Source: Escherichia phage EC100
Direction: 5' to 3' (one strand)
Sequence record: NC_105587.1
Length of the DNA: 64,000 bases
In this document: positions 3,162-11,877 of the stretch, one piece after another
Layout: each line of letters starts with the position of its first letter
How positions within the stretch are numbered: the first letter of the stretch is position 1
Program-made: the position numbers and the translations under genes
Notes under the pieces: generated by a model
The model's input: only the letters and a program-made list of their open reading frames with translations
Told to the model about the DNA's origin: nothing
Database searches by the model: none

Positions 3162-3845
3162 TCATCTATTTTTCTTAATACTTTTAGGATCTTTCCCTGT
3201 TAGGGACTTATACCTTTTCCTTAATCCAGTATCAGACAATCCTAGTTCTTTGGAGGCACGAATCCAGGAATATTTAGATACCCAGTACTCTATTTGCTCC
3301 ACAGTAATATCTGGATTTATAGTTATCTCTTTAGGAGTACATGATTTACAGTGTGTTGCTCTTGAGCTAATTTCGCAGTGACAAATAGCACACGTATTTA
3401 CAGTCCTTTCTGTATACCTGCCAATATTTTTGCCTGCATGAGTAGGTGTTAGTGCATGGCAATTTGGGCATAGGAAGGCTAAGTTATCCCATTCATTATT
3501 ATAGTGATTTCCATCCTTGTGTTCAAGTTCTAAAGGAATTGGTTTATCTAACCAACTTTCTAAGCCACAACTCTCACATTTATGTGGTTTTAGCCCCTCG
3601 TTAAGAATTTTATTCTTTAGTTTATAGGAAGAAATAGGGCTGCCGTTATATAAATACTCTGTTGCAGACTTATATTTATTATCATACTGCCTATTCGCAG
3701 GAATAACTACTATTCCTAGTTTTCCTAAATATGCTTCCAAAGTGTTCGAGGAGCAGGATAGCATTCTTGCTATCTCTGCTTTAGATTTTCCCTGAGCTAT
3801 CCACTGAGCTATTTCTTCCTTTCTATCTAGTATATCAGTTCTCAT
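3162..3845 (-). CDS. HNH homing endonuclease with N-terminal helix-turn-helix domain
   Basis: HNH motif region HKCESCG...ELEHKDGNHYNNEWDNLAFLCPNCH plus further Cys/His clusters; weak ribosome-binding site; located inside the tRNA island. Confidence 0.7.
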   Translation of the reverse strand: MRTDILDRKEEIAQWIAQGKSKAEIARMLSCSSNTLEAYLGKLGIVVIPANRQYDNKYKSATEYLYNGSPISSYKLKNKILNEGLKPHKCESCGLESWLDKPIPLELEHKDGNHYNNEWDNLAFLCPNCHALTPTHAGKNIGRYTERTVNTCAICHCEISSRATHCKSCTPKEITINPDITVEQIEYWVSKYSWIRASKELGLSDTGLRKRYKSLTGKDPKSIKKNR

Positions 3846-3868: not shown

Positions 3869-3946
3869 TGGTGGCTCCCCGAGGATTCGAACCTACGTAC
3901 CTTCCGGTTATGAGCCGGGTGCTCATACCATATGAGCTTGAGAACC
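3869..3946 (-). tRNA. tRNA with anticodon CAU (Met or Ile2-type)
   Basis: Acceptor GGTTCTC/GGGAGCC, D-stem GCTC/GAGC, anticodon loop CTCATAA on a CCGG stem, T-loop TTCGAAT, CCA. T-stem pairs only partially. Confidence 0.5.
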
Positions 3947-7656: not shown

Positions 7657-8157
7657 TTTAAGTATTTTTAAGAACTCTCGTAAAAACTCTTAAAAATACA
7701 GACGATACCGGGAGAGTCATAAGTCTCACTCATTAAGTATTTCAAGACAAAATACAGTAACGTCTATTATTTTCCAGTTTAAGTCAAGGTGACTTAGTGG
7801 TTATGTCCTGCGGTATATTGAGGACTCGGTTAGGTTAGGGTCATGACTCCCCACCTTTTTGCTGCTACTCAACAGGAGTTATCGCGAATTACCTGTGCTA
7901 TTGTGCACCATTAGTGGCATCTCTCATGCCAGCATTTCCCACTTTATGTATAGCTTGAAAAACTACTCCGATATGGAGGAAAAACTTCACTATCTAGAAT
8001 ACCTTCTAAAGTTCTTCTTTAGCCTGGACATAGTTAAATCGTAATAAAACTATTCAGCAGACTGGTTGGTTAGTCTGGAACCAACTACCGCGTGGTTTAG
8101 GCAGTGCGCAACTAACCTCGGAAGCTTTTACGTTAAAAGCATCAGTTATCCAGTTCT

Positions 8158-8229
8158 TACCGACCGTAGGATTCGAACCTACATCTTCCACCAGTTACGG
8201 CTTGATAATACCAATTATACTAGGACGGC
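8158..8229 (-). tRNA. tRNA-like element (degenerate, possible pseudo-tRNA)
   Basis: T-arm GTAGG-TTCGAAT-CCTAC identical to the one in the 1271-1353 tRNA, acceptor stem with one mismatch, no clean anticodon stem, no CCA. Confidence 0.25.
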
Positions 8230-8305
8230 AGTGTTACTACATAAGTGATTTCCACACCCCACTATTTATAAATTAGATAGAAATTACTCTCTAATTTATG
8301 AATAT

Positions 8306-8334
8306 ATTATATAGAATTTATAAGCATTTAGCAA
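8306..8334 (-). promoter_or_regulatory. T5 early-class promoter (TTGCTA, 17 bp, TATAAT)
   Basis: Minus-strand TTGCTA-17-TATAAT with the conserved CATAAATT downstream box. Confidence 0.6.
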
Positions 8335-8342
8335 ATGAATTT

Positions 8343-9015: not shown

Positions 9016-9465
9016 TTAAGTTTTAGTGACAACAGGTTTATAGAATGTATGTCCCTTAATCTTAGTTGTTTTCTTAAATTTCTTTGTCCAGTAAGGTTTA
9101 TCTTTACCACTATGGAAGTATAGTGCTCCATGTGTAGGATCTTGTGGTAAATCAACGTAGTATATCACTCTAGCTAAATTCTTAGCGGTTTGCCAAGCCT
9201 CATCAGTTTTATCAACTTTTGGTCTCTTAGATACCCAAGAGAACTGGTTAGACTGATATACTACTTTACAGTAGGAATCTGGGAATTTACCGGAGTTTAC
9301 ACGGTTTTTAGTAACATGTGCAATCGCCGTCATTCCCTTTATGCCCTCACCACGACTTTCGAAATAGATATTTTTAGCAATGCAATCTATTTCTTTTGCA
9401 TCGTGCGACGCCTGACTACTAAAGCTGAAGGTAAGGGCAGCTACTAAAAGCAAAGCTGCCTTCAT
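9016..9465 (-). CDS. secreted cell wall hydrolase, SleB/Hydrolase_2-like
   Basis: Signal peptide MKAALLLVAALTFSFSSQA; conserved block IYFESRGEGIKGMTAIAHVTKNRV...VVYQSNQFSW; start moved to ATG 9465 with AGGAG ribosome-binding site. Confidence 0.6.
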   Translation of the reverse strand: MKAALLLVAALTFSFSSQASHDAKEIDCIAKNIYFESRGEGIKGMTAIAHVTKNRVNSGKFPDSYCKVVYQSNQFSWVSKRPKVDKTDEAWQTAKNLARVIYYVDLPQDPTHGALYFHSGKDKPYWTKKFKKTTKIKGHTFYKPVVTKT

Positions 9466-9470
9466 TCTTT

Positions 9471-9788
9471 TTACTCCTGCCAATCATATTCAACACGATT
9501 GGGATTTTCTTTATACCCTAAGTCAAGCAAATCATTACGCATATTTTGCTTAGCTACTGGGTTCGAGGTTACTAGTACCACTTTCTTTGGTCTCTGCCCA
9601 AATTCTAAGAGTAAACGAAGAATTTGATAACCTTCCATACCATCTACAGCCAAGTCATTATCCATATAAACGAAGTGGCCTGTGGTATCAGTTTTATTCA
9701 GAAACTCTACAGCGGCTTCTGGGGTTCGAATGATAATGTCCATTCCGTGAAGATTACGCACATCATCAATCAAAATATGAAAAGTCAT
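9471..9788 (-). CDS. stand-alone CheY-like receiver (REC) domain protein
   Basis: Aligns by eye to CheY: ILIDD (acidic pair), YMDNDL..GMEGYQIL (phospho-acceptor Asp), VVLVTS (Thr), GYKENP (Lys); 105 aa. Confidence 0.5.
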   Translation of the reverse strand: MTFHILIDDVRNLHGMDIIIRTPEAAVEFLNKTDTTGHFVYMDNDLAVDGMEGYQILRLLLEFGQRPKKVVLVTSNPVAKQNMRNDLLDLGYKENPNRVEYDWQE

Positions 9789-10230
9789 AATAGCCTCGTT
9801 TCATCAATTTAAAAATATATTATACATATAATTTAGTAGATTAGCAAATACATTTTTAAATTGTGAAACTAGTAAACCGATAAACAGCCTAGAGGCGCCA
9901 CAGGCCATATCTTATGAGCCATGTACCTTTGATCTAGGGTTTGAATCATCAACGAATACTTTGCATCTTTTAGCTTTAGAAGTTTAGAAGTTTGAGTTCT
10001 TTAAACTTTTCAGCTTTCATACTTAAATGTTGATCTTTGAAGTTGTGTCGGTAATATCAACGACGCTTTGTTCTTACGTGTCAGCTTAAAAGGCTGGTGT
10101 AATAAACATAATCTCCAATAGATTATACTTTATAGTATGGTCAGCGGTCTTATTTAACCTCGTATTTCAACCGCTGTTGCGAGGTAAGATGCTTGGGCTT
10201 TCGTCTACCGATTTACTAGCTTTTAAATTA

Positions 10231-10869
10231 TTACTCTACTTCAATAAAGGTAGAGGCGTTAGACTCGGACAGAACAAAGTCAACATTTGTTGCAAAGTCC
10301 TGGTATTCCTCGTCATGCTGCTTAATCAGCTTCTCCAGTTCCAGCGGATCAATCAAGAATGGAGTATTCTTGAGTTCCAGCAGGTTGAGCTGCATTTTAA
10401 CTTCATCTTCGGAAGTTTTCTTATCGCGGGTAGCCATGCTATCCTGCAAACGCTCGTATTTAGCATCAAACTGTGCTTTCTGCGTATTAAACTTAACCGT
10501 AGCGGCATGGAACTGCTTACGCATGTTAGCCAGCAGTTGAGCTTTAAGTTCCATACAACGCTTAGCTTCAATTGCTTCCGCAACAGTCATCTTACGAGAA
10601 CCGATCTCAACGATTGTTTCTGCATTGCTCTTAATCAGAGCAGCTTTGATACGATCACGCTGGGACATCATATCCAGCAGAGACTGGAAATCTGTCTTAA
10701 TACGCTCAGATAAATCAGCTACTTCGATTGCAGCACCAACTACAACCTGGTTTTTATCCTTACCTTCACCAACAGCGATCAGAAGCTGCTGTTCAGTAGC
10801 TTTACGGATTTTAGCTTCCAGAGATTTGATAGTTGCTAGAGCGCGAGTTTTAGAAATACGAGTAGTCAT
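10231..10869 (-). CDS. hypothetical coiled-coil protein, likely abundant (212 aa)
   Basis: AAGGAAG ribosome-binding site; E. coli-optimal codon usage; no catalytic motif. Confidence 0.55.
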   Translation of the reverse strand: MTTRISKTRALATIKSLEAKIRKATEQQLLIAVGEGKDKNQVVVGAAIEVADLSERIKTDFQSLLDMMSQRDRIKAALIKSNAETIVEIGSRKMTVAEAIEAKRCMELKAQLLANMRKQFHAATVKFNTQKAQFDAKYERLQDSMATRDKKTSEDEVKMQLNLLELKNTPFLIDPLELEKLIKQHDEEYQDFATNVDFVLSESNASTFIEVE

Positions 10870-10922
10870 TATTTGCTTCCTTATATGAAGTTTGAGATTT
10901 GAATTTGTTTAAATTTGGTCTA

Positions 10923-11105: not shown

Positions 11106-11145
11106 ATTTGTTTTCCTTTTATTGTTTTCTCAAATTTATGAATAT

Positions 11146-11174
11146 ATTATACAGAATTTTGGAGCCGGAAGCAA
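11146..11174 (-). promoter_or_regulatory. T5 early-class promoter (TTGCTT, 17 bp, TATAAT)
   Basis: Minus-strand consensus hexamers with 17-bp spacer, followed by ATATTCATAAATTTGAGA. Confidence 0.6.
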
Positions 11175-11175
11175 A

Positions 11176-11877
11176 TCAAATTTTCATTTTTTCGATCATA
11201 GCTGCAACACAATAGCTCTCAACTAAGGCATCAAATGCTGGGTCGTGCTTAACCGGATAGATCCCATAACGAATGGTGTCCATCTTCTCCATTTTAGCTT
11301 TTGCCCAGCTAATACCTTCAGCCTCTAGATCTTTGTAACTATAACCAGCTTGCATCCAGAGATTACGGAGAGATCGAACATTGCCCAAATTCCAGAATTT
11401 CCACGGAACTACCTCTTCATTGGTTCCAGCATGGAACGTGTTTGCAGAGTAGATAGTCATATCAAACTCTGGGCCATTGCCATAATACAAAGCATTTTCG
11501 CCTAGAGCCAACTCCATAATATTTTGAGCCATAGAGAAGGCAGCATAGTTTGAGCCGAGTTTATTAGTGCAATGATGTTTACCATTTTGGAAGGCAATCA
11601 GTTTTGGATTACGTCCCTTCATAGCTTCCATAATGTGGATAGCAGACGGGCTATTTTTAGCTTGATCCATCCAGAATGCTAGAGTAGATGCTGTAACTTT
11701 GGCACCAGAATTAAGCTGATCTTGTACATCCAAAGTAACAAATATTAGATCAGGGTCTTTATCAATTCCTTGCATAGCCACAAAAGCGAAAGAAGGCATT
11801 GCGATATGAGTAGTACCACAATCTCCTGGAGTTCCCAGAGATTCAATATCTAGCATACCAAATGGTTTTACTTTCAT
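11176..11877 (-). CDS. DEDDh-type 3'-5' exonuclease (DnaQ-like fold)
   Basis: Exo I motif MLDIESLG, Exo III motif YPVKHDPAFDA; AAAGGA ribosome-binding site. Confidence 0.6.
   Translation of the reverse strand: MKVKPFGMLDIESLGTPGDCGTTHIAMPSFAFVAMQGIDKDPDLIFVTLDVQDQLNSGAKVTASTLAFWMDQAKNSPSAIHIMEAMKGRNPKLIAFQNGKHHCTNKLGSNYAAFSMAQNIMELALGENALYYGNGPEFDMTIYSANTFHAGTNEEVVPWKFWNLGNVRSLRNLWMQAGYSYKDLEAEGISWAKAKMEKMDTIRYGIYPVKHDPAFDALVESYCVAAMIEKMKI

Follow-up and report, generated by a model that had tools for sequence, protein, structure and literature searches.

The minus strand of Escherichia phage EC100, a T5-like phage (Tequintavirus; the 64,000 nucleotides (nt) of NC_105587.1 analyzed here are referred to as the window), carries between two protein genes a tract, positions 9789–10230, that comprises two independent units: (i) a structured RNA (10222–9866) and (ii) the promoter, 5′ untranslated region (5′UTR) and ribosome-binding site (RBS) of the downstream gene (9865–9789). 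The RNA is the obligate same-strand 3′ neighbor of genes of the phrog_1491 protein family, not only in T5-like phages but also in many unrelated large phages and in the chromosomes of Bacillota, and it appears to be an undescribed, widespread, protein-linked RNA class. The observations as a whole are best explained by two units, the first being an RNA of ~357 nt that is tied to its obligate protein-gene neighbor and would act as the RNA subunit of a ribonucleoprotein (RNP); we put the probability of this explanation as a whole at about 0.75. The narrower statement, that a conserved structured RNA is genetically coupled to the phrog_1491 protein, is very likely correct. Features described below lie on the minus strand unless stated otherwise.

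The tract is bounded by the stop codon, at 10231, of a 212-amino-acid (aa) gene (10231–10869; T5.085 ortholog, phrog_1491), the upstream partner of the RNA, and by the start, at 9788, of a 105-aa gene (9471–9788; T5.084 ortholog) that encodes a cREC domain (Pfam PF20274 cREC_REC, E = 3.8e-15). These borders were recognized in a preliminary description of the window, which saw no open reading frame (ORF) on the coding strand between them; the borders hold, and no ORF is conserved there. The only ORFs on that strand encode 34 aa (9804–9908) and 27 aa (9869–9952). The 34-aa ORF overlaps the promoter and is annotated in few records only; it cannot count as conserved because it is broken in 5 of the 29 distinct sequences that make up our T5-like comparison set (a stop codon in four, loss of the start in one). 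In the same set, 12.9% of the columns of the tract are polymorphic, compared with 26.9% for the 212-aa gene and 24.8% for the 105-aa gene, and third codon positions in the two flanking genes are polymorphic at 59% and 49%. Variation within the tract clusters in 10109–10050 and in the promoter spacer.

The nested stem-loops proposed earlier for the tract are supported by folding. The structured RNA (9866–10222) has fold z-scores of −5.75 and −5.13, the former from a sense-strand minimum free energy (MFE) of −114.2 kcal/mol against −81.2 ± 5.7 kcal/mol for dinucleotide shuffles, none of 100 being as stable; the antisense strand gives z = −3.61. A long-range inverted repeat of 27 nt, 10203–10229 with 9859–9885, closes the domain, and its G-U pairs exist on the minus strand only. 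The RNA begins 9 nt past the stop codon of the 212-aa gene and consists, in order, of a closing helix (P1), a CGAAA junction, an H-type pseudoknot, variable hairpins, an A-rich heptad array and a 3′ module that abuts the 3′ strand of P1. The suggestion that the tract encodes a small RNA is only partly right: a structured RNA is strongly supported, but the element is a multi-domain one of ~290–440 nt, genetically locked to the upstream protein gene.

P1 pairs a 5′ strand, AAGCUAGUAAAUCGGUAGACG (10202–10222), with a 3′ strand, UGUUUAUCGGUUUACUAGUUU (9866–9886), to form an inverted repeat that in the window amounts to 20 bp, including four G-U pairs. Both arms are invariant among the T5-like phages, with no polymorphic columns in 10229–10190 or in 9889–9870, and a compensatory AU-to-GC change in P1 is also recorded within this set. 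In every lineage the nucleotides immediately 3′ of GGCUG pair with a segment close to the stop codon, and this segment ends just before CGAAA(AC); the window conforms to this arrangement, which we propose as defining the family, its 5′ strand ending ..CG-AAA and its 3′ strand starting right after GGCUG. The 35 family members analyzed all have P1 in this position, with strand sequences that are unrelated. In an anchor-based alignment of these 35 sequences, 88.4% of the cells of P1 and P5 (the outer helix of the 3′ module) are paired, and 88.2% of those of P1 alone, compared with 34–44% in slid controls, figures inflated to some degree by 5′ anchors that were picked partly by complementarity. 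Double-change cells number 275 (66–74 in the controls), the covariation score is 0.858 (0.12–0.17) and a G-U pair at the P1 junction is invariant. When the 5′ regions are shuffled, the best helix averages 8.3 pairs rather than 14.9. The motif YGRA follows the best P1 helix in 29 of 33 sequences, in a search that did not demand it. The junction strand itself, CGAAAG... (10186–10203), corresponds to the family consensus CGAAAAC.AURAACUU, of which G16, A17 and A18 are conserved at ≥90% in alignment A4.

The 3′ module (9885–9942) reads AAACC-P5 (CCUAGA/UCUAGG)-inner helices-GGCUG and is described by a covariance model, R1. The family form is AAAUCC-P5-GGCUG, and the window has AAACCC in place of AAAUCC. 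R1 matches 9876–9949 with 54.8 bits (E = 1.5e-12), the only significant match in the 64 kb, where it should be kept in mind that the window sequence belonged to the seed. By eye and by pattern search, AAAUCC-helix...helix-GGCUG is present 230–400 nt past the stop codon in nearly all of 57 distant loci. The outer helix is recovered by RNAalifold from a 39-sequence alignment with base pairs of varied identity (UA18/AU11/CG5/GC3 and AU14/UA8/GC7/CG7); the program recovers this helix only, and the register of the inner helices differs between subfamilies. In 58 model-aligned sequences, P5 shows the same pattern of replacement (pair 14–78, AU22 UA21 CG7 GC4; pair 15–77, AU19 CG14 UA12 GC10), and 82% of its cells are paired compared with 32–48% in slid controls.

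The linkage to the protein gene can be followed over large distances. At least 80% of the tract is present in 435 phage records (blastn), and the 212-aa protein is found in 737 phage records from very different hosts (tblastn). Distant Demerecviridae keep a gene-free gap of 384–428 nt after the homolog, as does a 144-kb Klebsiella myophage, and an nhmmer profile of the T5-like tract gave E = 2e-21, 5e-14 and 4e-9 in a first search of those three gaps. Matches 3′ of the gene were obtained in Enterobacter phage KKP_3711 (2e-21), Klebsiella myophages (1e-12 to 1e-19) and Erwinia phage KEY (4e-9), as well as in IMG/VR loci whose proteins are only 33–39% identical; the element is conserved where protein identity is only 30–45%. 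Among 57 viral loci found via the protein, 55 have exactly one same-strand R1 match downstream of the gene, and in the remaining two the contigs end just after the gene. R1 also matches at the expected place in all six named phages of other taxa (Bacillus Bc431v3 of the Herelleviridae, Vibrio AG74, Pseudomonas KIL4, Lactococcus AM4, Clostridioides LIBA6276 and the Erwinia jumbo phage Bosolaphorus) and in 76 of 80 bacterial genome loci found via the protein, mostly from Lysinibacillus, Solibacillus, Paenibacillus, Brevibacillus, Bacillus and Clostridia. The reciprocal search gives the same picture: 23 of 80 IMG/VR loci collected from a bare DNA pattern score with R1, and the gene is immediately upstream on the same strand in 23/23.

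The RNA matches on the strand of the gene only, in an orientation that is fixed in the ~160 loci examined, and it starts 4–60 nt past the stop codon, invariably on the same side of the transcript. The other genes of the T5 locus do not travel with it. Eight T5 neighbors (cREC, SleB, exonuclease, SPFH and others) were sought by tblastn and none was found near 79 distant copies, so they are not part of the module; the downstream neighbor of the RNA differs in every lineage, and distant copies have no cREC gene nearby. Ordinary chromosomal genes surround the gene and gap in Solibacillus silvestris and Tepidibacter hydrothermalis. Of four bacterial copies read, three (L322, L323 and L321) have a hairpin and U-run resembling an intrinsic terminator just downstream of the RNA. 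In phages the RNA is often embedded in tRNA arrays. Two known RNA classes were encountered close by, a skipping-rope RNA directly 3′ of the RNA copy in Paenibacillus xylaniclasticus (L242, 2519–2647) and, in an IMG/VR phage, a drum RNA within the tRNA array that precedes the gene (L098, 1600–1709). A metagenome-assembled contig of an uncultured Parabacteroides sp. (L297) has two 3′-module matches (2329–2405 and 2691–2763; 48.9 and 47.6 bits), ~360 nt apart and downstream of a single gene, which may represent a tandem duplication of the RNA.

Between the variable hairpins and the 3′ module lies an A-rich periodic array (9943–10041) with ~8 AAAG/AAG units in the window; the family unit is NUYAAAG, with a period of 7. 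AAG-to-AAG spacings peak at 7 (54 cases), 14 (25) and 8 (19), and the autocorrelation of the array reaches 0.439, 0.409 and 0.373 at lags of 7, 14 and 21, respectively, over a baseline of ~0.25, with lag 7 the maximum in 29 of 33 sequences. AAAG is enriched to 5–18 occurrences per 120 nt downstream of the homologs (background ~1), and AAAG positions have a higher predicted probability of being unpaired than other purines do (0.55 versus 0.42, p = 2e-5). The short tandem repeat reported in the preliminary description belongs to this array. It is present as TTAGAAGT(T) ×2 at 9976–9992 on the plus strand, or AAACUUCU ×2 at 9978–9993 on the sense strand, although two copies alone could be chance; the AGAAGTTT repeat is real, but it is a piece of the longer 7-nt-periodic array and not a standalone short repeat. 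The repeat is predicted to pair with upstream AAAAGUUUAAAGAA in both the MFE and the consensus folds. One metagenomic phage group carries, between gene and RNA, a low-complexity (AAAGGA)n / (AAAAGAGAGAAGGAA)n insert with inverted repeats on either side (L076 at ~3200–3400, L078 at ~3190–3320, and L067), which pushes the RNA ~470 nt downstream. Plain AAAG counts in these three loci are misleading and were set aside, the true array being farther downstream than the insert.

The 5′ domain contains a putative H-type pseudoknot (10142–10185), in which helix A pairs ACCUCG (10185–10180) with CGAGGU (10162–10157) and helix B pairs CAGCGGUU (10176–10169) with GACCGCUG (10149–10142). In the window it follows the CGAAA junction by 15–25 nt, a spacing we propose for the family in general. 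Compensatory changes, read from sequences with unambiguous conserved flanks, are seen in both helices. For helix B these are CGAGGC/GCCUCG (L061), CGGGGC/GCUCCG (L062), CGGGAA/UUCCCG (L064), CAGCGGU/ACCGCUG (T5) and CAGCCAC/GUGGCUG (KEY), and for helix A ACCUCG/CGAGGU (T5) and ACGUCU/AGACGU (KEY). An automated pseudoknot search scores 26.5 (17.4 for shuffles), whereas counts of hand-picked pseudoknot pairs are paired by construction. The pseudoknot is the least rigorous feature of the RNA. The variable hairpin region that follows (10042–10141) is its most polymorphic part, with 22 polymorphic columns in 10109–10050 and with length and sequence that differ between lineages; within the T5-like phages an AU↔CG exchange is compensatory (CAGC/GCUG versus CAGA/UCUG, pair 136–144).

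The second unit of the tract accounts for the T5-class promoter that had been placed at about 9800–9850. A T5-type σ70 promoter of the cREC gene, separate from the RNA, is recognizable from its sequence, TTGCTA-N17-TATAATA (9847–9818; −35 TTGCTA at 9847–9842, −10 TATAAT at 9824–9819, then A). It matches 10 of 12 σ70 positions and the T5 early promoter consensus, TTGCTT-N17-18-TATAATA (given in the AKFV33 record after Wang et al. 2005), and a promoter is annotated at the homologous site in the AKFV33, T5 and BF23 records. Support for the promoter comes from this consensus match and conservation rather than from the number of sites, given that a generic promoter scan of the tract is not enriched over shuffles (three found, 4.1 expected). 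The 5′UTR, RBS (GAGG, 9797–9794) and ATG (9788–9786) of the 105-aa gene follow at 9786–9818. An AT-rich inverted repeat of 17 nt (94% complementary; 9805–9821 with 9847–9863) brackets the promoter and in a read-through RNA would form a hairpin reaching the 5′UTR just ahead of the cREC RBS; it could make translation depend on the promoter used, or serve as an operator.

The alternative offered in the preliminary description, a long structured leader, is not supported, since the last nucleotide of the RNA, 9866, precedes the −35 box of the cREC promoter (9847). The structured part is accordingly not in that promoter's own transcript. The structured RNA is the 3′ trailer of the 212-aa gene and not the leader of the cREC gene. 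In Salmonella phage falkor, a 538-nt homing-endonuclease cassette (L006, 1564–2101) is inserted exactly between the RNA and the promoter, at the equivalent of window positions 9867/9866 and right after the 3′ strand of P1. In Vibrio phage AG74, which is unrelated to falkor, a homing or HNH endonuclease gene likewise directly follows the RNA 3′ end (L237, 2487–3164).

Transcription of the RNA may instead begin farther upstream. The putative early promoter of the unit T5.086–T5.085–RNA (11145–11173) reads TTGCTT-N17-TATAATA, a perfect T5 consensus, and AKFV33 has a T5-consensus promoter annotated at the homologous place, upstream of orf084. The generic σ70 scan missed the site at 11145–11173 and under-calls T5 promoters, because TTGCTT agrees with TTGACA at only three of six positions.

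The phrog_1491 family of the partner protein comprises at least 2,594 clusters at 50% identity (E ≤ 1e-10), all of ~205–215 aa and without fusions. The 212-aa protein belongs to no Pfam family, and searches of Pfam, NCBIfam, PADLOC and PDB sequences returned nothing usable on its function. An AlphaFold2 model from a 68-sequence alignment has a predicted local distance difference test score (pLDDT) of 90.5 and consists of long helices and a small sheet formed from two SNA.T.(I/V)E motifs. Its sole specific structural relative is 3kdq, DIP1984 of Corynebacterium diphtheriae (Foldseek probability 1.0, E = 0.013), which a protein profile run against PDB sequences also reaches at E = 0.073. The predicted fold is a DIP1984-like helical bundle. 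The family carries the label 'tail fiber protein', for which this analysis provides no support; the label looks like a propagated mis-annotation, given the DIP1984-like predicted fold, the early position of the gene and the copies in bacterial chromosomes.

How might such an RNA work? In the model we favor, it would be transcribed as the trailer of the T5.086–T5.085 message from the promoter at 11173–11145, and its ends would be defined by P1, through processing in T5 and through the terminator in bacteria. It would then act in trans as the RNA subunit of an RNP. The largely single-stranded heptad array would offer a multimeric protein, most simply the co-encoded one, a series of equivalent sites that it could occupy cooperatively, and the pseudoknot and P5 domains may fix geometry or fold, or nucleate binding. 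Such a scheme has parallels in the operator of T4 gene 32, in the target RNAs of HutP, TRAP and CsrA and, as regards gene organization, in Ro–Y RNA modules. We hold this scaffold mechanism tentatively, at somewhat less than even odds. The frequent position in phage tRNA arrays hints at a role in RNA metabolism or translation, and a ribozyme or tRNA-directed role is suggested by nothing beyond that tRNA-island context and the P4-like AAAUCC/GGCU strands near P1. A bolder extension, which we think doubtful, is that gene and RNA form an unrecognized RNP machine of Bacillota and large phages, in which the array templates a helical or ring oligomer with one protomer per heptad and the pseudoknot–P5 core acts on tRNAs or other RNAs; such an activity would explain why phages place the RNA in tRNA islands.

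Several observations weigh against the two-unit explanation as a whole. The array of the window is slightly degenerate, with a best lag of 8 rather than 7, and it is predicted to be partly base-paired (unpaired probability 0.40 versus 0.43 elsewhere). Support for the inner helices of the 3′ module is partial (66.7% paired). Unsupervised MAFFT alignment and RNAalifold of the 5′ domain predicted 0 pairs, the alignment being too poor, and the strands of the pseudoknot, like the P1 5′ anchors, were picked partly by complementarity, which inflates the figures for paired cells. No intrinsic terminator-like site (a GC-rich hairpin and U run) is present in 9789–10230, so that a discrete RNA species in T5 would require processing that is still hypothetical. 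No RNA-binding domain is recognizable in the protein and its only structural relative, 3kdq, has no assigned function. Finally, no expression, end-mapping or binding data on the RNA were found in the literature.

Among the alternatives, the one that survives best, though we consider it unlikely, is a cis-acting operator in the 3′UTR, with the co-encoded protein or a nuclease binding the pseudoknot and A/U-rich repeats and thereby governing how stable the phrog_1491 mRNA is or how well it is translated. The strict reciprocal linkage with the gene, the constant location 4–60 nt past the stop codon on the same transcript side and the terminator that follows in bacteria would all suit such an element, as would a pseudoknot combined with a periodic A/U-rich array. 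There is a precedent in the operator of T4 gene 32, where a pseudoknot followed by UUAAA/UAAA repeats nucleates cooperative protein binding with a site of ~7 nt. The likeness is that in both cases a pseudoknot precedes an unstructured A/U-rich repeat tract. However, the T4 operator is a short 5′ leader that covers the RBS, whereas the RNA described here is 300–400 nt long and 3′ of the ORF, far from the RBS, is closed by a long helix, has an extra conserved 3′ domain and bears no sequence relation to it. A multi-domain fold of this size with a closing helix of 10–20 bp exceeds the usual needs of stability control, and P1 encloses the whole element as in a free-standing RNA.

It is distinctly less probable that the RNA is a counter-defense or host-takeover decoy, in which the array would sequester a nuclease or RNA-binding protein of the host during infection (for example through RNase E-like RN|WUU sites, or by binding Hfq, S1 or a toxin endoribonuclease). 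This idea draws on the multi-copy short motif, the early region beside tRNA and RNA-repair-type genes in T5 and the frequent location in phage tRNA arrays, with tRNA islands that counter tRNA-targeting defenses as a parallel. It fits poorly with the presence of the same module in ordinary chromosomal contexts in Solibacillus, Tepidibacter and most of the Bacillota species sampled, with phages of Gram-negative and Gram-positive hosts that share no common candidate target, and with a module that always requires its own protein gene and has no PADLOC match.

A function at the DNA level, with the heptads as iterons of an origin, partition site or operator and the inverted repeats as cruciform or recognition sites, is very improbable. 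Direct 7-bp repeat arrays are typical of some DNA-binding sites, for example of the omega/ParG type, homing-endonuclease insertions adjoin the RNA, and the antisense strand also folds better than shuffles (z = −3.61). But the helices keep pairing via G-U, which leaves an A-C mismatch on the other strand, and one such G-U pair is invariant; the orientation to the gene is fixed in the ~160 loci and terminators lie just after the RNA; and neither the pseudoknot topology nor the long-range P1 helix has a role in duplex DNA. That the tract is ordinary spacer or a decayed gene (a promoter and leftover sequence, with structure and repeats by chance, a pseudogene or a small ORF) can practically be dismissed: some annotators call the 34-aa ORF, the opposite-strand ORF of T5 st0 extends into the tract and a two-copy 8-mer alone could be chance, but this is contradicted by a polymorphism lower than that of the flanking genes, by the breakage of that ORF in 5 of 29 sequences, by retention of the element at 30–45% protein identity, by strong covariation and by the fold z of −5.75.

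None of the known RNA families accounts for the element. Rfam 15 (4227 models) reports nothing over 9789–10230 at gathering thresholds, and at E ≤ 10 only two noise matches appear on the tract (snoR09, 18 bits; mir-84, 14 bits). Over the homologous element in 37 related loci there are likewise no Rfam matches, only tRNAs, one drum and one skipping-rope RNA elsewhere in those loci. The literature on T5 noncoding RNA (ncRNA) and transcriptome, T5.084/085, DIP1984, GOLLD/ROOL and heptanucleotide repeats, together with the Breaker and Weinberg surveys, does not describe the RNA, subscription-only papers being outside the scope of this search.

Comparison with known RNPs is nevertheless instructive. 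Similar in organization is the system of Ro60 (Rsr) and Y RNA. The 5′ and 3′ ends of Y RNA form a long stem that encloses its functional domains, and the ncRNA gene lies beside the Ro gene. The resemblance to the system described here extends to a protein gene with a same-strand structured ncRNA whose ends are paired in a long stem, an occurrence in both bacteria and phages and a context of RNA metabolism. The differences are equally clear: the partner here is DIP1984-like and no TROVE/Ro protein, and the RNA is two to three times longer than Y RNA, has a pseudoknot and heptad array and lacks a tRNA-like domain. A Ro–Y system as such was rejected, the adjacent protein having no Pfam domain and no Rfam family, Y RNA models included, scoring over the tract.

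Regularly spaced motifs that form a platform for an oligomeric protein are well known from the GGA repeats of CsrB/RsmZ, the 11 (G/U)AG repeats bound by TRAP and the three NAG-N4 repeats of HutP, which have a period of 7. The HutP spacing equals that of the array described here. Compared with the targets of CsrA, TRAP and HutP, however, the motif is (A)AAG followed by N-U-Y and is set inside a larger fixed fold, and the candidate partner is unrelated to any of these proteins.

tmRNA (transfer-messenger RNA) and RNase P RNA are similar in size (~350–400 nt) and in their paired ends, and tmRNA also has a pseudoknot before a single-stranded stretch. The AAAUCC...GGCU strands near the 3′ strand of P1 recall the P4 strands of RNase P, AAGUCC...GGCU. 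Unlike these RNAs, the element has no T-arm or CCA, and the Rfam tmRNA and RNase P models find nothing at E ≤ 10; in contrast to P4, the helix closed by AAAUCC/GGCUG encloses only ~45 nt, with no catalytic or specificity domain. A tRNA or tmRNA was rejected directly: ARAGORN calls no tmRNA, and none of its tRNA calls falls within the tract.

The RNA shares with ROOL, GOLLD, OLE, raiA, drum and skipping-rope the character of a conserved multi-domain ncRNA of unassigned function. To our knowledge, none of these classes has a strictly linked protein gene or a 7-nt-periodic array. ROOL, GOLLD and OLE are larger than the RNA described here, and none of the Rfam models of such ornate RNAs matches it. 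ROOL, GOLLD and drum are often found in phages beside tRNA genes (PMC5737381, PMC12286853).

Two other candidates were set aside. ToxI-like antitoxin RNAs of type III toxin–antitoxin systems have tandem repeats of 34–45 nt upstream of the endoribonuclease toxin gene, with a terminator between. Here the repeat unit is 7 nt, the RNA is downstream of the gene, and the protein has no ToxN/AbiQ-like or PADLOC match. A relation to the nick sites of T5 DNA (GCGC in GGCGCC) was dropped, since bacteria and non-T5 phages have the element as well; the locus lies at 35.4–35.7% of the T5 map.

Over 9400–10900 the window shares 99.9% identity with Escherichia phages EC122, EC105 and EC104 and 98.3% with AKFV33. 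The gene after the T5.084 ortholog encodes a SleB-type hydrolase. The T5.087 ortholog (11176–11877), two positions upstream of the 212-aa gene, is predicted by Pfam to be an Rv2179c-like 3′–5′ exoribonuclease (E = 4e-8); its orthologs are variously labeled metallopeptidase or exonuclease. This exoribonuclease, the cREC protein (9471–9788) and the tRNAs give the locus an RNA-processing flavor that is specific to T5-like phages. ARAGORN identifies nine tRNA genes in the window, farther along the same strand and none inside the tract. Two further sites score as tRNAs with Rfam but are not called by ARAGORN, 8158–8229 (35.5 bits) and 3872–3946 (40.3 bits), both on the minus strand. The first falls, by rough mapping only, within noncoding ~7750–8340, which corresponds to the 'rnaX, stable RNA with unknown functions' of the T5 reference. 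At the tract, the T5 reference record shows the promoter only, and its rnaX is a different, neighboring region. In T5 st0 (AY692264), a 798-nt ORF, T5p083, with its own promoter is annotated opposite the 212-aa gene (window ~10090–10890, plus strand; L004, 844–1641). We consider this ORF spurious on the basis of the conserved minus-strand frame of the 212-aa gene, its codon-position pattern and the conservation of the protein in 737 phage records.

In the genome records of T5, a classic model phage, this element of ~360 nt has remained unannotated apart from the promoter. After two decades of comparative RNA searches it is unusual to find an RNA beside essentially every examined copy of a protein family. 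In contrast to most orphan RNAs, the present one has an obligate protein partner and occurs in tractable systems, namely E. coli with T5 and the phages of Bacillus, Lysinibacillus, Pseudomonas and Vibrio. Two mis-annotations that have been propagated are also corrected: the 'tail fiber protein' label and the ORF annotated on the opposite strand in T5 st0. If the reading proposed here is true, gene and RNA would represent a new, widespread class of complex-folded bacterial and phage ncRNA, would give the first functional handle on the DIP1984-like fold and would provide a new lead on the non-tRNA content of phage tRNA islands.

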